A stretch of DNA of 64,000 bases, from assembly GCA_000406005.1 (NCBI GenBank), contig ASZN01000021.1, positions 3,309-67,308 on the forward strand, given 5' to 3'. The position numbers and the translations under genes were made by a program. Source of the stretch: Candidatus Poribacteria bacterium WGA-3G. Lineage in GTDB: Bacteria; Poribacteria; WGA-4E; WGA-3G. Of this stretch, positions 4,029 through 43,653 are shown piece after piece. Numbering within the stretch: position 1 is the first letter of the stretch; each line of letters opens with the position of its first letter. Under the pieces are notes generated by a model. The model was not told the origin of the DNA and did not search any database. It worked only from the letters and a program-made list of their open reading frames with translations.

Positions 4029-5018
4029 ATGGAAGGAATTGTTATAAAATCGAGAGGCGGTGCTTACGAAGTACAGGTTGGCGACCGTTGCTATACCTGT
4101 ACCGTACGGCATCACCTGATCGAAGAAGAGAAGCGTCGTCTCGATGAAACCAAAGAGATGCCTTATGTCGATCTCATCGCAGTCGGCGACCGCGTCCGTA
4201 TTTCGACACCGACACCGGCTGCGGATAACGGCTACATTGAGGCGTGTTTCCCACGCGAAACGCAATTTGGACGTATACGCATGGACGGTTGGCGACAGGT
4301 TATCGTTGCTAACTTAGAAATGCTGCTGATCATCTTCGCTGCCCGACACCCTACACTCAAGCTGCGGATGCTCGATAGATTCCTCGTCACCGCAGAGGCT
4401 TCGGATGTAGAACCCGTCATCTGTATCAACAAAATGGATCTGGCAAAATTGGAGAATGTACAGCGTGAACTAAAATTATATGAAGAATTAGGGTATAAGG
4501 TAGTTTATACAAGTATTGTAACCGGACTCGGTGTTGATGAGTTAAGAGAAACAATGCAAGATAAGATTTCCGCAATCGTCGGTTCATCTGGAGTCGGGAA
4601 ATCCTCTCTCCTTAACGCATTACAACCCGGGCTCCAATTACGCATTGGTGAAGTCGATGAGCGTATCCACAAGGGACGGCATACAACAACAGAAGTTATG
4701 CTGCTGCCCCTTGCGTTTGGCGGATTTGTCGCAGATACGCCCGGCATCCGAACGCTCGGACTGCTTGAAGTCGATGACGAACAGGGGTTAGATATCCATT
4801 TTCCTGAGATGCGCCCATATATCCCAGAGTGTAAATTTGCAGCATGCACGCACCAACACGAACCGGCATGTGCTGTCAAAGAGGCAGTTGAAACGGGTAC
4901 AATTAATACACTCCGGTATGAGAGTTATCTCCGGATCTCTGGATTCAAGGAGGGGAGATATGAACGAAACTCAGATAAGAGAAGATCGGACCGAAACACG
5001 AGAAGACGCAAACGCTGA
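4029..5018 (+). CDS. rsgA: ribosome small-subunit-dependent GTPase A
   Basis: G4-G1 circular-permuted GTPase (NKMDL...SSGVGKSSLLNAL) with a C-terminal zinc finger CKFAACTHQHEPAC. Start at ATG 4029, preceded by AGGTGA. Confidence 0.9.
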   Translation: MEGIVIKSRGGAYEVQVGDRCYTCTVRHHLIEEEKRRLDETKEMPYVDLIAVGDRVRISTPTPAADNGYIEACFPRETQFGRIRMDGWRQVIVANLEMLLIIFAARHPTLKLRMLDRFLVTAEASDVEPVICINKMDLAKLENVQRELKLYEELGYKVVYTSIVTGLGVDELRETMQDKISAIVGSSGVGKSSLLNALQPGLQLRIGEVDERIHKGRHTTTEVMLLPLAFGGFVADTPGIRTLGLLEVDDEQGLDIHFPEMRPYIPECKFAACTHQHEPACAVKEAVETGTINTLRYESYLRISGFKEGRYERNSDKRRSDRNTRRRKR

Positions 5019-6066: not shown

Positions 6067-7620
6067 ATGGCAATGGAGAAAACTGTGATAAATCTTTGTA
6101 ATGTGCTAAAGAGTTCATCGAGTGTGCGAGTGCATGCGCATTGGCAGCCGATTTCGGATGCTACATTTAATATGCACAACGATTCACCACAACTCGCTGA
6201 GATGTTTGATCTGTCACCGTGCCACCCTGTCAAGGAATACGGGGTGGAAGATTTCAAGGTATTTCTTCCGTCTTCAACTGTAGCCGTAGGTGATCTATGG
6301 ACACTGGATCCGAACAGAATTGTTCCTTTCCTTTATCAGTTTCACCCAGGGGCAAGGGCTGATTTAGGTAACGGTGAGGAAGGCGCTTATGCGTGCTTAC
6401 GGGCATGTTCATCAGATTATGCGGAGATCACTTTCCGATTACATGCCGAGTTTACATTGGGAAATGTTGCACATCAGGAGCCGCAACAAGAAAACGCTGA
6501 AGAGGTGTCGGAACCGGAGTCCGAAGCTACGTTTATCCCATCGCAATATGTCGGACAGATGTTCGTCAATTTGAAAAGAGGAACGATTCGTGCGTTTTCG
6601 TTGGTACTACCTGCACGCAATAGCAATGTTGACATCAACGCCTGTGGTGGCGCGGATATGGTCTTTGTGCCGCGCATGGAGCTCCTCGCCACGGATGAGA
6701 CCGACCAAGATGAAATTGCGTGGGAGACAGTTATCACGGCAGAAAAAGCATGCCGTTCATTAGAATTGAAGTTTTACCCATTCGCGAAGATTGACTGGCT
6801 GCCGATCGAGAGGGCAGTTGAACGTGCGAAAGCAACGCACCGCCCGATTCATGCGATCCTTGTCTGGGGCTGCTTAGACGATGAATCTTGCTGAGCGAAC
6901 GGCAAATATTTGAGGGCGGGTCCGCTCTCCGATTCAGAAGTGATAGAGACACTCAACGAGAAGTTTGTCAATACATGGGTGCTTCTCAGGGAATTGCCAG
7001 AACTGATAAGTGGCGCGAAAGGCGAGACACCGAGCCTTGTGGCTAAAAAAATGCAACAGCATTATACCGACTCTGTGGATATTCTGGCGTTGACTCCCGA
7101 TGCGGAAGTCATTATGCATCAGCCGGAGTCGGCGCTGCCTTATAGGAAGCAGTCGCAGGCATATTTAACGGTGTTAAAGCATTCTGTAGCGGCATTTGAA
7201 GGAAGACGCACACGTGTAGGGAAAAGATCAAAATTAGATGGAAATCCGATCAGCTTGGGAACGGAATTGATGGAGATTTTGCATGTTTATGGCACGTCTA
7301 GCACCAACCCTCCAGATGACACGGTTGTTAAAATTGATACGACACCGTTTGAATCTGGTGGGATACTCCACATTGAAATACAGGTAGGTGCAGGCGAGTC
7401 GGCAGGGACGTTTGAGTTGTTTCATGACGACACCGAACTTTCCTCAAAAGGGGGTGCTGATGAAGCCCTTGATGGTGCATGGAATATTTCACCCGGTAGT
7501 ATCGGACACATTTTTCACAATTTCAGACGAGGTCGGCATTTCAAATTGGTCGCTACGGGTGCCGACGCTCAAAAAGCCACTGCTTTTTTGGCACGTGTTT
7601 CTGTTGTTTCGGATTATTAG
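6067..7620 (+). CDS. unknown N-terminal domain plus thioredoxin-fold (DUF255/YyaL-like) domain; single frame with one in-frame TGA (6892-6894); candidate selenoprotein
   Basis: ORFs 6067..6894 and 6910..7620 share one frame and are separated only by TGA. The second segment has no ATG and no SD. Sequence around the TGA (RPIHAILVWGCLDDESC-U-ANGKYL...SEVIETLNEKFVNTWVLLRE...ILALTPDAEV) aligns with the thioredoxin-like module of YyaL-type proteins (DKPIFLSIGYSTCHWCHV...EEIAKLLNENFVSIKVDREE...LTVFLTPDG). A hairpin GAGGGCG-GGUC-CGCUCUC lies 17 nt downstream. Confidence 0.5.
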
Positions 7621-7712: not shown

Positions 7713-8015
7713 TTGATGCTAACAACACTCATTCATCAAGAACTACTTGACAACCTGATGACGTTCCGCTTCGCCGCAGCAGTCTTTATCACACTGTTGC
7801 TTGTGGTTACAAATACCGCTGTGCTTATTAAGGACTATGAGCGACGCTTGGCAGGCTACAACGATGCTGTTAAAATGCATCAACGCCAACTCCAAGAGAC
7901 AAAAACCTATTCGGCAGGTGAAGTGTATGTTGATCGTCCACCTAACCCGTTAAGCATTTTCAATGTCGGATTCGATGAGCAACTTGAAAACAAGATTGAG
8001 GAGTTATTGACATGA
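7713..8015 (+). CDS. small single-pass membrane protein (hypothetical)
   Basis: One TM helix (AAAVFITLLLVVTNTAVLI). Its stop overlaps the start of the next gene (ATGA), which suggests translational coupling. Confidence 0.5.
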   Translation: MMLTTLIHQELLDNLMTFRFAAAVFITLLLVVTNTAVLIKDYERRLAGYNDAVKMHQRQLQETKTYSAGEVYVDRPPNPLSIFNVGFDEQLENKIEELLT

Positions 8016-9928
8016 AAACAGGACTATTTTTTCCGGTTATGCTTATCCTCTTATTAACCGCCGCTCTCTTTCTCCCGAGCAGCCCTGCACAAGATTACAC
8101 CCGATGGCAACTGCCTGAAGGCGCGATCGCGCGTTTTGGGAAGGGTATGCTCACCGAGTTCGTCTATTTGCCGGATGGTCATCGCCTCACCGTTTTGAGT
8201 TCGATCGGCACCTGGATATACGATGTCCGCACGGGTGAAGCACTGGATCTCATCACAGAACCGTTCACTGAAGATATGCGGCTCAGCCCCGATGGAAAGA
8301 CACTTGCTGCTGCAACGGACGGCAGCGTTTATTTATGGGACCTGCAGACTAAGAAATTGAAAAATGTTCTTGTAGGGGACACACATAGGATCGGTTCATT
8401 AACATTCAGCCCTACTGGAGAAACAGTCGCAGGCGGCACTTGGAACAATGCGATTCAACTGTGGGATATGCACACCGGTAAGTTGTTAAAGACCCTTATA
8501 GGACACACAGACCTTAACACAAGGTCTATGACTATTCGCTTTATCGCGTATTCGGACGATGGAAAGAGATTGGCGAGTGTCGGTTGGGAAGACAGAACAA
8601 CGATTCGTATTTGGGATGTGGAGACTGGACAACTCCGGCAGACGATCACTGAGCTTCCGAAACATATCTATAGTGTCGCATACTCGCCTGATAGTCAGTC
8701 CCTGGTGGGTGGCGGTAGCGATTCCAATATTTATCTTTGGGATGCTGGCACTGGAGAACGCCTAAAAACACTCGTTGGACATACAGCTGGCGTTGGTTCT
8801 GTGACCTACTCGCGAGATGGCACGACACTTGTGAGCGGGAGTTGGGATAAAACAATCCGCTTTTGGAACGCTAGCACCGGTGAACTCTTGAAAACCCTTA
8901 TCGGACATACGGAGGGTGGTGTTGCTGTAATGTACGCACCAGATGAAAAAACCGTTGCCAGTATGAGTTACTATGGCGGAACGATTCGTATTTGGGATGT
9001 GGGAACAGCCAAACTCTTGAAGACGATCACCGGACATACCGGCTCTTTTGGGAGATCAGTGGCGTTTTCACCGGATGGTCAGATGCTTGCGTATAATGGG
9101 ATGCCGGATAATACTATTCCGCTGCGCGATGTACAGAGTGGACAGCTTCTGAAAATCCTCACTGGGCATACAGATACTGTTAATTCGGTGCGGTTCTCAC
9201 CAGATAGCAGCGTGCTTGCGAGTGGGGGTTGGGATGGTAGTATCCGTTTATGGGATGTGGCGACTGGGCAGCTCCAAAAAACTATCACCGGACATGAGAA
9301 GGGTGTCCCTTCTATCAACTATTCACCGGACGGTGCAACCCTTATGAGTGGAAGTTGGGATAATACAATCCGTTTCTGGGATGTTGGGACGGGTAAACAC
9401 TTAAAAACCATAGTAGGGAACATCGCACAACTGGATGCGATCCAAGGTGTTAGGGCTATTGCCTTGAGTCCGGATGGGGGAACGATTGCCAGTGCAACGG
9501 ATGAAAAAGTGATTCGGTTATGGGACGTGCACACCGGTAAACTCAAAGACTCCCTTGTTGGACACACGAACGAGGTTGCTGCTGTCGCATTTTCTCCAAG
9601 TGGAGCCGTGCTTGCAAGTGGTAGTGACGATGCCACAGTGCGTTTATCGGATGTGGAAACAGGTAAACTGCTGAATACCTTCAAAGAGCCTACAAGAAGC
9701 AGTGTTTTATCCGTTGCCTTTAGTCCAGATGGACGTATACTTGCGAGTGGATGTTCTGGCGTGATTCGGTTGCGGGACACATCCACTAAGCGAAACACAG
9801 TGACCCTCACTGGACATACGACTTGGGTCCGGGCGTTAGCGTTCAGCCCTGATGGACACATACTTGCCAGTATAGACGAAAGTGGTGTGGTTATGCTATG
9901 GGATATGAACCAGGTTCGATGGCAATAG
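8012..9928 (+). CDS. secreted WD40-repeat beta-propeller protein (~14 WD repeats)
   Basis: Signal peptide, then repeated units of the form GHT..V.SVAFSPDG..LASGS.D.TIRLWDV.TG.LLKTL. Confidence 0.9.
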   Translation: MKTGLFFPVMLILLLTAALFLPSSPAQDYTRWQLPEGAIARFGKGMLTEFVYLPDGHRLTVLSSIGTWIYDVRTGEALDLITEPFTEDMRLSPDGKTLAAATDGSVYLWDLQTKKLKNVLVGDTHRIGSLTFSPTGETVAGGTWNNAIQLWDMHTGKLLKTLIGHTDLNTRSMTIRFIAYSDDGKRLASVGWEDRTTIRIWDVETGQLRQTITELPKHIYSVAYSPDSQSLVGGGSDSNIYLWDAGTGERLKTLVGHTAGVGSVTYSRDGTTLVSGSWDKTIRFWNASTGELLKTLIGHTEGGVAVMYAPDEKTVASMSYYGGTIRIWDVGTAKLLKTITGHTGSFGRSVAFSPDGQMLAYNGMPDNTIPLRDVQSGQLLKILTGHTDTVNSVRFSPDSSVLASGGWDGSIRLWDVATGQLQKTITGHEKGVPSINYSPDGATLMSGSWDNTIRFWDVGTGKHLKTIVGNIAQLDAIQGVRAIALSPDGGTIASATDEKVIRLWDVHTGKLKDSLVGHTNEVAAVAFSPSGAVLASGSDDATVRLSDVETGKLLNTFKEPTRSSVLSVAFSPDGRILASGCSGVIRLRDTSTKRNTVTLTGHTTWVRALAFSPDGHILASIDESGVVMLWDMNQVRWQ

Positions 9929-19231: not shown

Positions 19232-19269
19232 AACAAAAAGCAATTATATAAAGAGGTTACACACTTCAA

Positions 19270-20571
19270 ATGTACAAAAAACTTTTACGCATAGGATTGG
19301 CATGTCTGATAAGTTTTCTTATCGTGTCGAACACCAGCCATGCCCAAGAACGTATTACCGGTCCGTGGCTCTGGATGATCGCTCTCACCGAACTCAACGA
19401 AGGCGGACAGGCTTCTACTGACATCGATTCTCTTGATGAAGCCAGTAAAGGCAGAACCACCGAAGAACACGTCGCAGAAAACGGTGCAAACGAAGGCGAT
19501 GAAGTCAGCGGTTATAGATGGACCCCCGGTGAACTCCCAGCAGACGGCAACATCAATACCTTGCTCGTTGATATTGGAATGACAGACATTGCCGATTTTA
19601 ACGATGTCACATCTTATGCCATTATCATCATCGAATCCGACGAAGAGCAACGTAATGTTAAAATGGGTGTCAGCAGCGATGACTCTATTAAAGTCTGGCT
19701 CAACGGTGAAGTCGTCCATAAAAACGCGGTCAATCGCGGACGCGGCGGTGCCAATGAATTTCAAGATGAATTCCAAGTTAACCTCAAAGAAGGTGCGAAC
19801 CTTTTAATGGTCAAAGTCAGTGAGCGCGGCGGCGGATGGGGAATGAACGTCGGCATCGATGCCGATTTCGACCACAGTCTGAACTTCGATGATTACGAAC
19901 ACGGCGAAGTAGACGCTAAGGGTGATCCGATTCCCGTACAAGAAACGGCATGGGGTGCAAACAGACGCATTACCGGTCCCTGGCTCTGGATGATCGCACC
20001 CACCAAAGCCAATCAAGGCGGACAGGCTTCCACCGAGGTCGATTCGCTCGACGAAGCCAGTAATGGTAAAGTCACCGAAGAGGAAGTCGCAAAAAATGGC
20101 GCGAACGAAGGTGATGAAGTCGGCGATTATGAATGGACAATCGGCGAACTCCCAGCAGACGGCAACATCAACACAACAGTTGTATCGATAGGTATGACAA
20201 ACGTCGCCGATTTTAACGATGTTACGTCCTACGCGCTGATTACGCTTAAAACCACCAAAGCACAGCGCGATGTTATCATGGGCGTTAACAGTGATGACTC
20301 TATCAAAGTCTGGCTCAACGGTGAAGTCGTCCATACAAACGCCGTAAATCGCGGACGCGGCAACGCAAACGCTTTCCAAGATACCTTCGAGGTTGACCTC
20401 GAACGCGGTAATAACATCTTAATGGTTAAAGTCAGTGAACGTGGCGGCGGATGGGGCATGTACGTCGGCATTGATGCAGATTTCGCACTCAGTAGTACGC
20501 CAGGACGCTTGTCCGTTGAACCTACAGGGAAATTTATAACGAAGTGGGGTGAACTAAAACGCACCCGCTAA
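19270..20571 (+). CDS. secreted protein, paralog 1 of a tandem family (two ~200-aa repeat units; possible lectin/PA14-like beta-sandwich)
   Basis: Signal peptide. Unit motif GPWLWMIAPT..NQGGQASTDIDSLDEAS...DDSIKVWLNGEVVH.NAVNRGRG...VKVSERGGGWGMYVGIDAD occurs twice. Confidence 0.8.
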   Translation: MYKKLLRIGLACLISFLIVSNTSHAQERITGPWLWMIALTELNEGGQASTDIDSLDEASKGRTTEEHVAENGANEGDEVSGYRWTPGELPADGNINTLLVDIGMTDIADFNDVTSYAIIIIESDEEQRNVKMGVSSDDSIKVWLNGEVVHKNAVNRGRGGANEFQDEFQVNLKEGANLLMVKVSERGGGWGMNVGIDADFDHSLNFDDYEHGEVDAKGDPIPVQETAWGANRRITGPWLWMIAPTKANQGGQASTEVDSLDEASNGKVTEEEVAKNGANEGDEVGDYEWTIGELPADGNINTTVVSIGMTNVADFNDVTSYALITLKTTKAQRDVIMGVNSDDSIKVWLNGEVVHTNAVNRGRGNANAFQDTFEVDLERGNNILMVKVSERGGGWGMYVGIDADFALSSTPGRLSVEPTGKFITKWGELKRTR

Positions 20572-20942: not shown

Positions 20943-21644
20943 ATGTACAAAAAATTATGGCTCATAGGATTGACATGTCTAATCGGTCTTTCGTTTATAA
21001 CGCATATCGCTGATGCCGAAACGCCCATCGCAGGACCGTGGCTCTGGATGATCGCACCCACTGAAGCCAACCAAGGTGGACAAGCCTCGACCGATATTGA
21101 TTCGCTTGACGAGGAAAGTAAAGGCAAAGTCACAGAAGAAGATGTCGCAAAAAACGGTGCCAGAGAAGGCGATGAAGTCGGCGACTATGAATGGACACCC
21201 GGCGAACTGCCAGCAGACGGCAACATTAACACCATGCTCGTCTCAATCAAGATGACAAAAGTCGCCGATTTTAACGATGTTACCTCTTACGCCCTTCTGA
21301 TACTCGAATCCAGCAAAACACAGTCCAAGGTGACAATGGGTACCAGCAGCGATGACTCTATCAAAGTCTGGCTTAATGGTGAAGAGGTTCATAAGAAGGC
21401 TGTGAACCGTGGTCGCGGCGGCACACCCGCAAATATCAATGGCTACCAAGATAGGTTCGAGGTGGACATCAAAAAAGGTGCCAACCTGTTGTTGGTCAAA
21501 GTCAGTGAGCGCGGCGGCGGATGGGGACAGTACGTCGGTATCGATGCCGATGTCGAACCCCACATAGATTTTGACGGGTTTCAACCCGTTGAACCCGCTG
21601 GAAAATTAGCGACACAATGGGCAGAAATTAAGAACGCGCATTAG
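20943..21644 (+). CDS. secreted protein, paralog 2 (single repeat unit)
   Basis: Same unit motif as paralog 1. A 40-mer at 21041 is identical to 40-mers at 22001 and 22561. Confidence 0.8.
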   Translation: MYKKLWLIGLTCLIGLSFITHIADAETPIAGPWLWMIAPTEANQGGQASTDIDSLDEESKGKVTEEDVAKNGAREGDEVGDYEWTPGELPADGNINTMLVSIKMTKVADFNDVTSYALLILESSKTQSKVTMGTSSDDSIKVWLNGEEVHKKAVNRGRGGTPANINGYQDRFEVDIKKGANLLLVKVSERGGGWGQYVGIDADVEPHIDFDGFQPVEPAGKLATQWAEIKNAH

Positions 21645-21905
21645 TGCTGTCGTTTTCAATCCGAACATTTTCGTTACCTGTTTTCGGTGCTATTCGATAG
21701 AGATATTTCACGTTGACTGGGCAACGAAAATTAAATTGTTCCAACCACCACTTTTTAATCTTGATTTAAATTGTGGTTATTTGTTAAACTAATATCGAAT
21801 AGTTGTTCATCCTTAATTTAAAAAGGCGTCAGAAACCATAACGCAATAGATGAGCACTGTTAAAGTTAAATGTTATTTTCTCAAAAAAATTAAACGGAGG
21901 ATTTT

Positions 21906-23153
21906 ATGAACAGGAAACTATTTGTAGGGTTAACGTGCCTTATGGCGATCTTCTTCATGACGCACATCGCTGATGCACAAGAACCAATTGCAGGCCCCTG
22001 GCTCTGGATGATCGCACCCACTGAAGCCAACCAAGGTGGAGAGGCTTCTACCGATATCGATTCTCTCTCAGTCGCCAGTGGTGGTGATGTCACTGAAGAT
22101 ATGGTCGCAGCAAACGGCGCAACCGAAGGCGACGAAGTCGGCGATTACGCTTGGACAATCGGCACGCTCCCAGCAGACGGAAACACCAATACCATGCTCG
22201 TCGAACTCGGTGTCACAGAAAATGCCGATTTCAACGACGTGAGTTCTTATGGACTTATCTACCTTGTATCCGCGACTGCTCAGTCCGGCGTAACGCTCGG
22301 CGCCAGCAGTGATGACTCTGTCAAAATCTGGCTCAACGGCGAAGTCGTTCACACAAACGCTGTCAACCGTGGACGCGGCGGCGCACCCGCTGATATAGAT
22401 GGCTACCAAGATAAAATTGAAGTAAACCTCGTAGAAGGGGCTAATCTGTTGCTCGTGAAGGTGAGCGAACGCGGTGGTGGATGGGGACAATACGTCGGTA
22501 TCGATGCCGATGTCACGACCTCACCTACGCCACCTATCTTTCACATTACAGGCGAATATGTCTGGATGATCGCACCCACTGAAGCCAACCAAGGTGGACA
22601 GGCTTCTACCGATATCGATTCCCTCGCAGTCGCCAGTAACGACGATGTCACCGAAGAAGACATCGCAATGAACGGCGCAACCGAAGGCGACGAAGTCGGC
22701 GATTACGCTTGGACGGTCAGTACCCTCCCAGCAGACGGAAACATCAACACCATGCTCGTCGAACTCGGCGTCACAGAAAACGCTGACTTCAACGACGTTA
22801 CCTCTTACGCCGTCATCACACTCGTAGCCGATGAAGATATGGAAGGCGTGATGTTCGGGGTCAGCAGTGACGATTCCGTCAAAGTCTGGCTCAACGGTGA
22901 AGTCGTTCACACAAACGCTGTAAACCGCGGACGCGGCAACGCCCAATCCTTCCAAGATACGTTCGCAGCTAACCTTGTCCAAGGCGACAACATCCTGATG
23001 ATAAAAGTCAGTGAACGTGGCGGCGGGTGGGGAATGTATGCCGGTACCAGTGCTGATGTCGAGGCTGTCTATAAGCCAGCTGTCGAATTAGGCACATCCG
23101 TTGAAGCCGCTGGCAAACTCCCAACAACATGGGGAAGCTTGAAAATTAAGTAA
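21906..23153 (+). CDS. secreted protein, paralog 3 (two repeat units)
   Basis: Signal peptide plus two units with the conserved motifs. Confidence 0.8.
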   Translation: MNRKLFVGLTCLMAIFFMTHIADAQEPIAGPWLWMIAPTEANQGGEASTDIDSLSVASGGDVTEDMVAANGATEGDEVGDYAWTIGTLPADGNTNTMLVELGVTENADFNDVSSYGLIYLVSATAQSGVTLGASSDDSVKIWLNGEVVHTNAVNRGRGGAPADIDGYQDKIEVNLVEGANLLLVKVSERGGGWGQYVGIDADVTTSPTPPIFHITGEYVWMIAPTEANQGGQASTDIDSLAVASNDDVTEEDIAMNGATEGDEVGDYAWTVSTLPADGNINTMLVELGVTENADFNDVTSYAVITLVADEDMEGVMFGVSSDDSVKVWLNGEVVHTNAVNRGRGNAQSFQDTFAANLVQGDNILMIKVSERGGGWGMYAGTSADVEAVYKPAVELGTSVEAAGKLPTTWGSLKIK

Positions 23154-29185: not shown

Positions 29186-29221
29186 CCCTCTACACACACA
29201 ATTCGGACAAAGTGGAAAAAG

Positions 29222-30511
29222 ATGGATACAGCAAGAATCCAAATCAAAGCAGGCAACGGTGGGAACGGATGCATCAGTTTCCGTCGCGAGAAATTCGTCC
29301 CTCGCGGCGGTCCTGACGGTGGCGATGGCGGCAACGGCGGCAACGTCGTCCTTATCGCTACCCTTGGAATGAGTACACTGATCGACCTGCATCATAACCC
29401 GCGCCAAGTCGCCGAAAATGGTGGACACGGCTCCGGCAAAAAACGAGACGGTGCTGATGGCGTAGATCGTGTCGTTAAAGTCCCTACCGGCACCATCGTT
29501 AGAGACTATGATACCACCGAGGTGCTTGCGGACCTAACGGAACCTGATGAAAGCGTTGTCGTCGCACGCGGCGGTATCGGCGGTAAGGGGAACGCACGCT
29601 TTAAAAGTAGCACCTTCCAAGCACCACGCGTCGCAGAGAAAGGCGAACCCGGCGAAGAACGTCAGATTAGCCTCGAAGTTAAACTCATCGCCGATGTCGG
29701 ACTCGTCGGCTATCCGAACGCCGGTAAATCGACACTCTTATCACGTACATCTGCCGCAACACCAAAAATCGCCGCCTACCCGTTCACGACGCTCCGTCCG
29801 AACCTCGGTGTCGTCCGCATCAACCGAGAACAGAACTTTATCCTCGCCGACATCCCCGGACTCATAGAAGGCGCGCATCAAGGTGCTGGCTTAGGACACC
29901 AATTCTTGCGGCACATCGAACGCACCAAGATGCTCATCCACGTCATCGACCTTAGTGCCACGGATGGACGAGACCCGATTAAAGATTACGAACAATTGAA
30001 CCGCGAATTGGGTCATTATAACGAATTGCTAACGAAACTGCCACAAATCATCGCACTCAATAAAACAGATATGCCCGAAGCGAAGGCGAACCTACAGCGC
30101 GTACAGGAATACTTCGGCAACCGGAAAACTTTTCCGATCTCTGCAATTACCGGTGACGGTGTGAACCCACTCATGCAGCAAGCCTATCGCTCCTTGCAAT
30201 ACTTGGAAGCACGTGCCCGAAAGGAAGCAGAGACAGCGATCATCTTGGAACATGAACTCCCACCGGAACCATCAGCACGGTTTGAACTCACTGAAACTGA
30301 AGATGGGTTCATTATCACCGGTGCAGAACCGCGCCGCGCCGTCCTCATGACCGACATGGAAAACGAACAAGCACTGGTCCTGTTATATCGGAAACTAAAA
30401 AATATGGGAGTTATAAACGCGCTTGCACGCGCAGGCGCGGAAGAAGGAGATACAGTCCAGATTGATGAATTCGAGTTCACCTATAGTCCAAAATCGATGC
30501 AATCCAGTTGA
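29222..30511 (+). CDS. obg: GTPase Obg/CgtA
   Basis: Glycine-rich Obg fold (GGNGG.G..SFRREK..P.GGPDGGDGGNGG) plus GTPase motifs GYPNAGKST and NKTD. Confidence 0.95.
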   Translation: MDTARIQIKAGNGGNGCISFRREKFVPRGGPDGGDGGNGGNVVLIATLGMSTLIDLHHNPRQVAENGGHGSGKKRDGADGVDRVVKVPTGTIVRDYDTTEVLADLTEPDESVVVARGGIGGKGNARFKSSTFQAPRVAEKGEPGEERQISLEVKLIADVGLVGYPNAGKSTLLSRTSAATPKIAAYPFTTLRPNLGVVRINREQNFILADIPGLIEGAHQGAGLGHQFLRHIERTKMLIHVIDLSATDGRDPIKDYEQLNRELGHYNELLTKLPQIIALNKTDMPEAKANLQRVQEYFGNRKTFPISAITGDGVNPLMQQAYRSLQYLEARARKEAETAIILEHELPPEPSARFELTETEDGFIITGAEPRRAVLMTDMENEQALVLLYRKLKNMGVINALARAGAEEGDTVQIDEFEFTYSPKSMQSS

Positions 30512-40767: not shown

Positions 40768-43185
40768 GTGCGCCATTGTGCTAATGTGCCCAATTGAGAT
40801 ATAAATCTCTATACTAATTAGGAAATGGTATAAAGCCAACTGCTTTAGGGTAAAGAGAAATCTAAACCTGAACATAGCATAGCAGTAAAGGATAGAATGG
40901 ATGAACTAACCTAATCCAAAGCTATTCAAGGCTTGAGAGATATGGTAAGAGTTATACTACCCGAAATCCAATACGCAGGAGTAAGTGTGGCTAAAAGGGC
41001 AAGGTTAGTGATGCCCCCACTAAGAGATGACATTAGATTTTAAGTCTGTCTAATGCCTTCCTAAATCTCTTAGACACTGTGAAATATACACAGGCAAGCG
41101 TATGAGTGGATTACCTAAGTCTCTCTATCGTTGACACATTGGAACTATGGGATAGTCTAAAGGGTGAGAACCCCATGGCTACGGAGTTTCCATAGTAGTC
41201 GCTCTCAACTGAGAATAAGACTATGCGAAGGTATAGTGAAGATGAAGGGAAACAGGTAAGTTAATCCAAGTAGATATAAGAGTAATGCGAAATGCATATT
41301 ATCTCGAATAAATACCTTGGAATAGTGAGTGATAGAGGAAAAAGAAATCTTCCGCTAAAGCGCGTATACTCTAATATGTGCGATAGAGAATTATTTCTAA
41401 TTGCCTATCATCAAATGGCGAAAAAGAAAGGTGCCATGACAAAGGGGTCTAACTCCGAAAACATTGATGAAATGTCGATTACAAAAATAGATAAAATCAT
41501 CAATGAACTTAAAACCGGAAAATATAGACCCAAACCCAGTCGTAGGGTCTATGTATCTAAACCAGACGGAAAACAAAGATGTTTAGGAATACCATGCTGG
41601 ACAGACAAACTCGTCCAACGTGTAGTAACGATGATACTGGGAGAATACTATGAACCCCAGTTCTCAGATCACTCGCATGGATTTAGACCCAATAGAGGTT
41701 GTCATACTGCTTTGGAAGAAATAGCCATAGCGTGGAAAGGGACAAAGTGGTTTATAGAAGGAGACATAAAGGGCTGCTTCGACAACATAAACCATGAATA
41801 CCTACTGAAGATCCTAAGAAAAAGGATTTTAGATGAAAGACTCATTAAACTCATTCGTATATGGCTAAAAGCCGGGTATATCGAGAATTGGACATACCAC
41901 AACACATACTCAGGCACGCCACAAGGCGGCGTTATGAGTCCTCTACTGGCTAACATATACCTCTCTGAATTAGATGAAAAATTAGAAGAATTATCTGAAA
42001 TCTGGAAAGTAGGAAAATCAAGAGGAACAAACCCCGAATACGCTAAACTATCGCGAAAAATCAACAAAGCAAAGAAGGAAAATAACGCCCAAGAAGCAAA
42101 AGAAGCACGGAAAGAACTTAACATCGCTAAAAGCAAAGGGCTTACTTGGTCGAATCCGCAAGATGACAATTTCCGCAGACTAAAATTTGTCAGATACGCA
42201 GACGATTTTATTATCGGATTTATCGGTAGCAAAGCAGAAGCCAAAGACATCAAAAAGGAAGTCAAAACTTTCCTCAAAGATGAAATTGGACTCACGCTAT
42301 CGGACGATAAAACGAAAATAACGAACGCGACACACGAAAAAGCACGCTTTCTTAACTACGAAATCTTTACCGAGAAATCAACAACAAGACCAAGAATAAA
42401 TGGAACAATCCGCTTGGACTTGCCTCACGACGTGTTCATAAAATGGAAAAGGAAGTATACTAAGAAAGGGAAAGCCTATCACAGCCCCTACTACATGGAA
42501 CTATCCGATTATATGATAATCAGGGCATATAATGCAGAGTTTCAAGGTCTCTATCAGTATTACATAATGGCTCAAAACGTATCGAGCAAATTATATCAAT
42601 TGAAGAGCTATGTGATGACATCAGCAGCTAAAACCTTGGCATCCAAACACAAACTCTCTGTAAACAAAATATGCGAAAAATATAAGAGGACCGGCAGCAA
42701 CGGCGTAAAAGCACTCATAGTAGAGGTCAATAGAAAGGATAAACCGCCCTTAGTCGCCACATTAGGGGACTTCCAAATAAAATGGGTAAAGTTTCCGAGT
42801 AAGAAAGATAAGCCATACAACGATGAAATTAGAGGTATAAAAGTTCTTGATGATAAAAAAAGTGTCCGGTCTGACCTCCTAACAAGGCTTATGAATAACA
42901 CTTGTGAAATATGTGGAAATACGGATGAAATAGAAGTACACCACATCAGAAAAATGAGTGATATTGATAAGAACAAAGAAGGATGGCAAAAACTCATGAG
43001 TAGCATGAGACGAAAGACACTCATCGTCTGCAAGGACTGTCATCATAAAATCCATATAGGAAAATATGATGGAAAATCACTATAAAAACTTACTGGAGAG
43101 CTACGTGCATTGAAAAGTGCAAGCGTGGTTCGGAGGGGGACTATTGAAAACACAGATGATGCTGTGCGTTGGTAGTCTACCCTAC
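40768..43185 (+). mobile_element. group II intron (~2.4 kb) with an intron-encoded protein in domain IV
   Basis: 5' GTGCG. Domain V is GAGAGCTACGTGCATT-GAAA-AGTGCAAGCGTGGTTC (AGC triad, GAAA loop) at about 43098-43131. Domain VI follows and the 3' end is ...CCTAC. The ORF at 41292-43085 encodes RT, maturase (X) and HNH domains. Confidence 0.85.
41292..43085 (+). CDS. group II intron reverse transcriptase/maturase with C-terminal HNH endonuclease domain
   Basis: RT motifs include FVRYADDFIIGF (YADD). An X/maturase region is present. HNH/zinc-finger-like sequence: CEICGNTDEIEVHHI...CKDCHHKIH. Confidence 0.9.
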   Translation: MHIISNKYLGIVSDRGKRNLPLKRVYSNMCDRELFLIAYHQMAKKKGAMTKGSNSENIDEMSITKIDKIINELKTGKYRPKPSRRVYVSKPDGKQRCLGIPCWTDKLVQRVVTMILGEYYEPQFSDHSHGFRPNRGCHTALEEIAIAWKGTKWFIEGDIKGCFDNINHEYLLKILRKRILDERLIKLIRIWLKAGYIENWTYHNTYSGTPQGGVMSPLLANIYLSELDEKLEELSEIWKVGKSRGTNPEYAKLSRKINKAKKENNAQEAKEARKELNIAKSKGLTWSNPQDDNFRRLKFVRYADDFIIGFIGSKAEAKDIKKEVKTFLKDEIGLTLSDDKTKITNATHEKARFLNYEIFTEKSTTRPRINGTIRLDLPHDVFIKWKRKYTKKGKAYHSPYYMELSDYMIIRAYNAEFQGLYQYYIMAQNVSSKLYQLKSYVMTSAAKTLASKHKLSVNKICEKYKRTGSNGVKALIVEVNRKDKPPLVATLGDFQIKWVKFPSKKDKPYNDEIRGIKVLDDKKSVRSDLLTRLMNNTCEICGNTDEIEVHHIRKMSDIDKNKEGWQKLMSSMRRKTLIVCKDCHHKIHIGKYDGKSL

Positions 43186-43356: not shown

Positions 43357-43430
43357 CGCAGGGTAGAGCAGCCAGGTAGCTCGTCGGGCTCATAACCCGG
43401 AGGACGGGGGTTCAAATCCCCCCCCCTGCA
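43357..43430 (+). tRNA. initiator tRNA-fMet (CAU)
   Basis: CGCAGGGTAGAGCAGCCAGGTAGCTCGTCGGGCTCATAACCCGGAGG...: C1:A72 mismatch, three G:C pairs in the anticodon stem, anticodon CAT. Closely matches E. coli tRNA-fMet as recalled. Confidence 0.85.
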
Positions 43431-43525
43431 ATCTTCTCAACCCCTAAATGTTCTTTGATACATCAACGATAACATACAAAAAACACACTTAACCTCATCG
43501 TTTCCGATAATCCATCTCAACCTAT

Positions 43526-43599
43526 GCCGGTGTAGCTCAGTGGTTTAGAGCACACGACTCATAATCGTGCTGTCCGGAGTTCGACTCTCCGCACCGGCA
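43526..43599 (+). tRNA. tRNA with CAU anticodon (elongator Met or tRNA-Ile2, the lysidine substrate)
   Basis: GCCGGTG-TA-GCTC-AGTGGTTTA-GAGC-A-CACGA-CTCATAA-TCGTG-CTGTC-CGGAG-TTCGACT-CTCCG-CACCGGC-A. Confidence 0.85.
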
Positions 43600-43653
43600 T
43601 CGTTCTACCGTTTAAGCGGTGGGATACAATTTGCCGTTAAAATTGGCGACCTC

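Follow-up and report, generated by a model that had tools for sequence, protein, structure and literature searches.

A very probable selenoprotein N of bacterial type in Candidatus Poribacteria, with a conserved in-frame UGA and a downstream hairpin resembling a bacterial SECIS

The locus considered here lies in a window of 64,000 nucleotides (nt), the whole stretch of DNA that was analysed, from Candidatus Poribacteria bacterium WGA-3G (assembly GCA_000406005.1, contig ASZN01000021.1, positions 3,309 to 67,308), and coordinates given below without a locus name are those of the window. An open reading frame (ORF) of 275 codons at 6067..6894 and the segment 6895..7620 occupy one common frame on the forward strand, interrupted by a sole in-frame stop, TGA 6892-6894, with the translated flanks ...RPIHAILVWGCLDDESC-[TGA]-ANGKYLRAGPLSDSEVIETLNEKFVNTWVLLRELPEL.... 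An earlier sequence-only reading had described two ORFs in one frame separated by nothing but this codon and had proposed a candidate selenoprotein, and the arrangement is confirmed at exactly these positions. It is highly probable that 6067-7620 is a single gene for a 517-residue selenoprotein, a bacterial homologue of SELENON (selenoprotein N, SelenoN) in Candidatus Poribacteria. The features on which the argument turns are listed here, selenocysteine being abbreviated as Sec (U) and the selenocysteine insertion sequence as SECIS:

6067..7620, + strand: predicted complete selenoprotein gene, 517 codons plus the TAG stop (7618-7620), with Sec at codon 276; bacterial SelenoN-like protein
6109..6732, + strand: SelenoN-specific N-terminal beta-rich domain (about residues 15-222), with invariant motifs; the AlphaFold2 model of the N-half has a pLDDT of 86.9
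6733..7221, + strand: thioredoxin-like domain (about residues 223-385), with Cys-Sec between strand β1 (PIHAILVWG) and helix α1 (ANGKYLRAGPL...)
6892..6894, + strand: UGA codon, predicted Sec, giving Cys275-Sec276 in the motif S-C-U-A; column conserved in homologues
6912..6929, + strand: putative bacterial SECIS-type hairpin, with stem 6912-6918/6923-6929 (7 base pairs, one of them G-U) and apical loop GGUC at 6919-6922
7249..7617, + strand: clade-specific C-terminal domain (about residues 395-517), fold unassigned, not in minimal bacterial or eukaryotic forms

The segment that follows the TGA contains no ATG, its earliest possible start being TTG 6910, and a search of 6895-6909 for a purine-rich stretch resembling a Shine-Dalgarno (SD) sequence found none, in agreement with the earlier description. 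Stop usage was surveyed on the open frames in the window with 200 codons or more, and 13 of the 52 terminate at TGA; TGA is therefore an ordinary stop here, as had also been claimed. The frame nevertheless stays open for 241 codons after 6892-6894, as against 0-137 codons for the other twelve long frames that end in TGA. The second-longest continuation, of 137 open codons, follows the TGA of an ORF for an Obg-like GTPase (29186-30511) and is probably due to chance, because the following gene, in a different frame, overlaps with it.

Conservation of the TGA column carries much of the argument. A search with the fused protein yielded 117 protein relatives. About 97 of them terminate exactly at query residue 275 (...DDESC), sixteen start at residue 282 or slightly downstream, at MRAGPLS... 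or further along that conserved stretch, and P0004 runs uninterrupted across the site (...DDESC-C-GTGKTLR...). The roughly 97 database proteins end where they do because gene callers stop at the conserved TGA, and both the frame and the protein similarity go on; consistent termination of homologues at this position, which the sequence-only reading had named as evidence against its proposal, is thus an effect of gene calling, and the DNA continues. In species-representative genomes, a scan brought up 129 relatives, and in the best 80 loci, all from metagenome-assembled genomes of Candidatus Poribacteria, tblastn matches cross the stop. Of 91 homologous sites, nearly all in Candidatus Poribacteria, 88 have TGA at the aligned column (79 aligned sites, six loci with slightly different flanks and three distant high-GC bacterial loci); the remaining three are the TGC of P0004 (L085), a TGG (L042) and a copy that is disrupted (L035). 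Past the TGA the frame remains open for 96-396 codons and encodes the conserved peptide U-[AG][NST]GKxLRAGPLS...FVNxWVLLRELPEL. The ratio of nonsynonymous to synonymous substitution rates (dN/dS) was measured against nine close orthologues. For the part downstream of the TGA it is 0.18-0.28; the upstream part gives 0.20-0.32, from eight comparisons since an indel spoiled the upstream one with L007. The near-equal values imply that both halves are translated under the same constraint.

An exhaustive profile search additionally recovered full-length bacterial homologues with Cys at the Sec column (P0146, P0148, P0162 and P0170, with SCC or ACC), and one relative, P0181, that carries Trp there (SCW) and shares its C-terminal domain with the window protein. 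Both Sec codons and Cys are thus found in homologues at the position where the sequence-only reading had suggested looking for them. A conserved in-frame TGA, Cys counterparts in homologues and an adjoining conserved Cys are the standard sequence signature of a selenoprotein gene. The same reading had placed a Cys-Sec dipeptide after a C-x5-C motif; the dipeptide stands, and the motif does not hold for the family, since Cys269 is confined to the window's own clade (23 of 82 sites, the others having V, A, P or T). At L042 the TGG lies at 4805-4807 with the downstream hairpin intact (CAGGGCG-GGUC-CGCUCUG), and this copy could reflect a recent loss of Sec, a sequencing error or an inactive gene. 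Further frozen context adjoins the stop itself: the base after the UGA is G in 66 of 66 aligned sequences, and at the 56 sites where the first post-UGA codon (window 6895-6897) specifies Ala, that codon is always GCG. A small predicted hairpin at 6888-6905 also takes in the UG of the UGA.

The hairpin GAGGGCG-GGUC-CGCUCUC at 6912-6929 starts 17 nt past the UGA, forms part of the minimum-free-energy fold and may be extended by a lower stem of 3 base pairs (6908-6910 with 6931-6933). In the bacterial SECIS (bSECIS) consensus of Zhang and Gladyshev, as summarised in PMC13188914, the loop has 3-9 nt with at least one G in its first two positions (G then G or U), the upper stem has 4-16 base pairs, the UGA-to-loop distance is 16-37 nt and the energy is -7.5 kcal/mol or lower. 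The window hairpin lies within all four limits with its 4-nt loop GGUC, 7-base-pair stem, 24-nt spacing and, taken alone, -9.8 kcal/mol. Applied as a strict implementation that allows no bulges, the model is passed by 73 of 82 family sites versus 59 of 2212 UGA triplets in the window (2.7%). The GGUC hairpin to which the sequence-only reading had drawn attention, with the advice to assess it by bacterial SECIS criteria, has therefore been found again in the predicted fold, is conserved and agrees with the model.

Selection on the RNA is visible in codon usage. Across 82 sites, the freezing of synonymous positions is confined to nt 19-38 after the UGA, corresponding to codons +6 to +11: Leu+6 is TTG in 72 of 77 sites, Arg+7 is AGG or AGA in 80 of 80 and never CGN, Ala+8 is GCG in 65 of 72, Gly+9 is GGT in 78 of 78, Pro+10 is CCG in 66 of 70 and Leu+11 is CTC in 80 of 81. 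At other conserved columns, in contrast, the same amino acids are encoded by four to six codons; for example, Gly-8 appears as GGT (33), GGC (29), GGG (16) and GGA (4), and Pro+35 uses all four of its codons. The 18-nt hairpin, including the AGG codon for Arg, is identical in high-GC homologues of only about 35% protein identity. Explicit pair counting on 66 distinct sequences showed 93.5% of hairpin cells to be paired, with double-sided changes at three pairs (G-C to A-U in 11 sequences, C-G to U-A in two and G-C to C-G in one). The observed covariation score was attained by none of 500 shuffles, and every slid register scored lower. In the same 66 sequences, loop positions G28 and U30 are invariant and G29 is nearly so. 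One subclade, in which AGP is replaced by TGV or AVV, uses a shifted stem register (GAGGAC-AGGU-GUCCUC or GAGGGC-AGUU-GUCCUC) that still places the G-G/U in the loop. Collectively, these features make the hairpin a likely read-through signal, a conserved SECIS of bacterial type to which SelB would bind. In the Cys form at L085, about 20-37 nt past the TGC, the stem GAGGAC...GUCCUC is kept and the loop reads AUUU where Sec-containing relatives have AGGU; this change from GGU to UUU, a single case, fits relaxed selection on the presumed SelB-contact bases after a Sec-to-Cys change.

The family to which the protein belongs was established by searching 1.84 billion representatives with an N-half profile. 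The profile matched 518 clusters (50% identity level) at E ≤ 1e-3, most of which end at the Sec column, and 209 at E ≤ 1e-30. Among the matches are eukaryote-type relatives (E about 1e-39 to 1e-41), of which P0255 and P0263 (the latter at E 2.2e-39) have an N-terminal membrane segment and an EF-hand and end in ...LDDQSC. Clustering at 90% identity places P0263 together with 'Selenoprotein N [Stylophora pistillata]' (PFX29373.1), and BLASTP aligns the fused window protein with this coral entry at E 5e-32 and 28% identity over 341 columns (query 54-332), on both sides of the Sec; the BLASTP/HMMER searches that the sequence-only reading had recommended thus lead to homologues of SelenoN type. The coral transcript reads DDQSC-TGA-GSGRTLREGPL... 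at the same column, a second eukaryote-type transcript likewise has DDQSC-[TGA]-GSGR, and human selenoprotein N carries its Sec in an SCUG motif (PMC12839072). Many bacterial relatives are also SCUG (SCU-GSGK or SCU-GTGK), the window clade being SCUA, and one JGI record already names a truncated homologue, P0092, 'selenoprotein N'. We therefore identify the window protein, by sequence homology, as a bacterial homologue of eukaryotic SELENON.

The DUF255/Thioredox_DsbH family (PF03190), which includes YyaL and the N-domain of SPATA20, was considered as an alternative assignment and rejected: the whole protein scores 12.4 bits (E 0.15) and the domain alone 14.5 bits, against a cut-off of 27. PF03190 matches weakly in 11 of 20 family members, the best at E 6.6e-4. 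Of the YyaL/DUF255 parallel drawn in the sequence-only reading, the resemblance at the level of the fold survives and membership of the family does not. An NCBIfam search gave no family match, and no Pfam or NCBIfam model was found for the family. Our literature search, of incomplete coverage so that a prior description may exist elsewhere, found no paper on a bacterial selenoprotein N; such a protein also goes unmentioned in a 2026 review of the prokaryotic selenoproteome, and in the BSepDB paper the string 'selenoprotein n' occurs only within the words 'selenoprotein name'. Both the decoding mechanism and the protein family are already known. What appears to be new is a large branch of bacterial-type SelenoN that keeps Sec and has its own SECIS within the ORF.

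Structural modelling was carried out on the N-half of the window protein and on the natural Cys homologue P0146, which stands for the fused protein. The P0146 model (pLDDT 92.5) has a β-α-β-α...β-β-α unit in which the Cys-Cys pair is flanked by a β-strand on one side and the beginning of a helix on the other; as modelled, the fold around the Cys-Sec site is thioredoxin-like with the pair at the start of helix α1, which upholds the earlier placement of the TGA in the redox segment of a thioredoxin-fold domain. The closest solved folds to this domain are DsbH/DUF255/UAS domains, and a fold comparison, whose figures carry no label, gives 14.4 for a DsbD-family domain, 12.9 for AGR3, 12.8 for thioredoxin, 12.5 for DsbH, 12.3 for a Thioredox_DsbH protein and 10.9-11.4 for UAS domains. 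The N-terminal domain contains the invariant motifs FLxQFHPGA, RxHAEF, PxQFxG and VPRMEL, and a Foldseek comparison of the N-half model with the PDB returned nothing significant (best E 0.045, TM < 0.25). Searched by sequence, the PDB gave no match to the fused protein, and a thioredoxin-region profile found none even with E values of up to 10 admitted. The C-terminal domain at 7249..7617, common to the window protein, P0002, P0003 and P0181, had no match in Pfam or NCBIfam scans and accounts for a post-Sec length of 236-255 codons in the window clade versus 96-118 in minimal forms. No signal peptide or membrane anchor was found, there being five codons between the upstream stop and the ATG and no hydrophobic segment, and no EF-hand was detected by Pfam. 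Because no signal peptide is present, the protein is predicted to be cytoplasmic.

From these elements a mechanism can be proposed in which the TGA at 6892-6894 almost certainly encodes selenocysteine. A ribosome arriving at UGA-276 would encounter the hairpin at 6912-6929, whose GGUC loop would serve as a bacterial SECIS and bring in SelB·GTP·Sec-tRNA(Sec), so that selenocysteine would be inserted in competition with release factor 2 and translation would proceed for 241 further codons to the TAG at 7618-7620. The expected product would consist of the SelenoN-specific N-domain, the thioredoxin-like domain with vicinal Cys275-Sec276 and the clade-specific C-terminal domain. The Cys-Sec pair would alternate between a selenenylsulfide and the thiol/selenol state, as in the GCUG end of thioredoxin reductase. 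By this analogy, and by one with what has been put forward for SELENON, the protein is most likely a thiol/selenol oxidoreductase, its chemistry and substrate being extrapolated from known systems, and a redox role is supported because paralogues fuse the SelenoN module to a TlpA/Redoxin/AhpC-type domain (P0102-P0117).

Several observations weigh against this interpretation. The 76-nt hairpin region folds no better than shuffled sequences (z = -0.3), which makes the single-sequence fold weak evidence. RNAalifold on the 66 aligned sites gave a weak consensus in which the hairpin was not recovered, a failure on a mixed alignment that is explained by the shifted stem register of one subclade, and an Rfam scan gave no match at the hairpin. 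Much of the hairpin's conservation coincides with the conserved peptide LRAGPLS, and true covariation is therefore confined to the three pairs. Trp or TGG stands at the Sec column in two relatives (L042 and P0181), which could hint at decoding by something other than Sec, or could simply reflect loss of Sec. A tRNA scan of the 64-kb window detected two tRNA-Met genes and no tRNA-Sec; selA, selB and selD were not recognised among its long ORFs, which were inspected by eye with no profile scan. ARAGORN reported no tRNA-Sec on the fetched homologue loci, and neither selenium labelling nor mass spectrometry of any bacterial member was found in the literature.

Some of these points would also suit a Sec-independent process, in which the hairpin stimulates read-through by a near-cognate Trp, Cys or Arg tRNA, in the manner of eukaryotic signals of the Sec redefinition element (SRE) type or of viral signals. 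No Sec machinery was seen in the window, two relatives have Trp at the column, and the SRE of eukaryotic SelenoN can drive Sec-independent read-through (PMC4561486). To this process we assign a small residual chance. The replacement seen in independent bacterial lineages is Cys beside a conserved Cys, the classic Sec/Cys signature; eukaryotic family members, whose Sec occupies this column, are proven selenoproteins (PMC12839072); and the hairpin fits a SelB-type model, the G-G/U of the loop being lost in the one Cys form examined. Other Sec proteins are moreover reported in Poribacteria, namely Sec-containing [NiFeSe] hydrogenases (PMC13582414). Together with the SelA, SelB and SelD clusters of orthologous groups reported in most sponge-symbiont bins (PMC5649159), they give indirect support for Sec decoding. 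If, instead, the locus comprised two genes, a 275-residue protein ending at the TGA and a second one starting at TTG 6910, the split would be the one that gene callers annotate in nearly all genomes, and a TTG start is indeed available. Such a division, which we regard as very improbable, would sever the thioredoxin-like fold between β1 and α1, at the redox site, where Cys homologues and eukaryotic SelenoN are single chains. The two parts are also always in the same frame, nothing SD-like precedes 6910, and the conserved peptide (U-ANGKYL) begins right after the TGA, upstream of the TTG, so that the five codons between the two are conserved as protein, with G and K invariant.

Neither damage nor an altered code accounts for the same body of evidence. 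A single in-frame stop does look like a recent nonsense mutation, as would be expected of a pseudogene or of a sequencing error in an ordinary gene containing Cys or Trp. Since 88 of 91 independent sites, which span dozens of assemblies and a number of paralogue clades, have TGA at this column, and since purifying selection is equal on the two sides of the stop, we give this explanation next to no credence. Genome-wide reassignment of UGA to Trp or Gly, for which nothing speaks beyond the open frame itself, is hardly conceivable when twelve other long frames end in TGA, with the frame closing soon after in most, and a long conserved continuation follows this one TGA only.

With a selenoprotein of the SelenoN family as the favoured reading, the diversity of its relatives becomes of interest. 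At least 3-4 SelenoN paralogues occur per Poribacteria genome; OZ241378.1, for example, has L054, L055 (two sites) and L071. Tandem same-strand paralogues, each with its own TGA and hairpin, are found at L048, L051, L052, L053 and L055, and gene calling has produced one chimeric database protein, P0002, by joining the half after the TGA of one copy to the half before the TGA of the next. In some Poribacteria and in other bacteria there are fusions to extracytoplasmic function (ECF) sigma-70 factors (P0067-P0089, P0004 at L085:5001-7073 and P0162), in which Sigma70_r2/r4 domains and a hydrophobic segment precede a C-terminal SelenoN domain. Most of these gene calls end at the Sec TGA, P0004 and P0162 being Cys forms. 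The SelenoN part is presumably extracytoplasmic, in a single-pass membrane protein, and the whole looks like a sigma factor fused to a redox sensor. In a further clade (P0102-P0117, loci L061-L076), with 280-396 post-Sec codons, the thioredoxin-like domain is followed by a helical linker and then by the TlpA/Redoxin/AhpC-type domain, which has WAVWNSFC in place of WCxxC and thus a single Cys left.

Mutation of the SRE of human SEPN1 leads to myopathy. This element, the best studied of the SREs, is a hairpin at the very position considered here (PMC8704476), and it has been proposed, for SPS genes only, that SREs descended from bacterial SECIS elements (Mariotti et al. 2015, PMC4561486). In a coral transcript and a eukaryote-type contig (L086:1483-1560 and L090:4303-4380), the Sec UGA is followed by a strong hairpin (-29 kcal/mol over 75 nt) whose apical loop, nt 24-33 or 26-33, is placed on the Gly-Pro codons (GGUCC or GGGCC) that also carry the bacterial GGUC loop, nt 28-31; the stem-arm sequences differ between the two types. 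An Rfam scan of these coral and eukaryote-type downstream regions found no eukaryotic SECIS family at E up to 0.1. One scenario is that the SelenoN SRE is a downgraded descendant of a bacterial SECIS in an ancestral gene of bacterial type, with the sigma-fused redox sensor of Poribacteria as a second strand of the idea. We consider this tentative and rather unlikely, because the shared hairpin position could simply follow from the conserved peptide. Were it true, a SelenoN gene encoding Sec would have moved between bacteria and eukaryotes, and SelenoN would provide a second, better-characterised test case after SPS.

Selenoprotein N is a human disease gene, responsible for SEPN1-related myopathies, and its biochemical activity is only partly understood; a PDB search found no solved structure of it or of a detectable relative. 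Most of the 518 clusters are of bacterial type, having neither anchor nor EF-hand; the fetched loci, for which taxonomy was checked, are nearly all from Poribacteria. Most family members appear to keep the Cys-Sec site, natural Cys variants exist, and expression, crystallisation and assays should be much less difficult with the anchor-free bacterial proteins than with the human one. The prokaryotic selenoproteome should gain a eukaryote-type family whose genes are systematically halved by current gene calls. Expansion in sponge symbionts, together with the fusions to ECF sigma and TlpA/peroxiredoxin-like domains, suggests a role in redox sensing or repair, and a recoding hairpin at the same place in bacteria and eukaryotes offers a concrete test case for the origin of the SRE.

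The remainder of the window contains other features of note. About 400 base pairs downstream of the selenoprotein gene, at 8012-9928, lies a gene for a 638-residue WD40-repeat protein with a signal-like N-terminus; eukaryote-like repeat proteins are reported for Poribacteria (PMC3909097). Three tandem paralogous ORFs at 19252-20571, 20943-21644 and 21894-23153 have similar hydrophobic N-termini and a common ...GPWLWMI... motif, and long shadow ORFs run on the opposite strand at 19252-20571 and 21894-23153. An ORF that by appearance resembles a reverse transcriptase/maturase (41286-43085) is followed by an Rfam match to a group II intron (43096-43185, 56 bits), the whole region (41286-43185) lying immediately upstream of the two tRNA-Met genes (43358-43601).

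Compared with eukaryotic SELENON, the window protein shows homology over both the SelenoN-specific and the thioredoxin-like domains, has its predicted Sec in the same column, immediately following a conserved Cys (S-C-U-[G/A]), shares the downstream peptide GSG[KR]xLRxGPL...F[IV]xxW.L.[KR][ED]L and is encoded with an RNA hairpin just 3' of the UGA. It differs in having no N-terminal membrane anchor or EF-hand and a predicted cytoplasmic location rather than one in the lumen of the endoplasmic reticulum, and in carrying about 125 additional residues as a C-terminal domain. For two functional traits of the animal protein, its residence in that lumen and the redox regulation of SERCA, a bacterial equivalent is not to be expected. 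Sec would be specified by an in-ORF SECIS of bacterial type here, whereas eukaryotes use a kink-turn SECIS that lies within the 3' untranslated region, and the paralogues in each Poribacteria genome, at least 3-4 in number, display several architectures. As in the fdhF and fdnG elements of Escherichia coli, the signal is a simple in-ORF hairpin shortly past the UGA with a small loop beginning G-G-U. The fdhF loop also contains GGUC, including the SelB-contacting G23/U24, and lies about 6 nt closer to its UGA than the window loop does. Unlike those elements, the window hairpin has no evident bulged U and its binding by SelB is a prediction only, and one subclade of the family has the register-shifted stem with loop AGGU or AGUU.

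At the protein level, the DUF255/DsbH/DsbD-gamma/UAS domains are distinguished from the window protein by their CxxC motif, in place of which it has a vicinal C-U pair, and by the fusion of its domain to the large SelenoN-specific N-domain, for which there is no solved relative. The nearest parallel to the C-U pair itself is the GCUG motif of thioredoxin reductase, in which adjacent Cys and Sec are likewise followed by a small residue and presumably pass through a selenenylsulfide/selenolthiol cycle (PMC12839072); there, however, the surrounding protein is unrelated and the motif sits on the flexible C-terminal tail of a flavoenzyme, whereas here it would be embedded within a thioredoxin-like fold.

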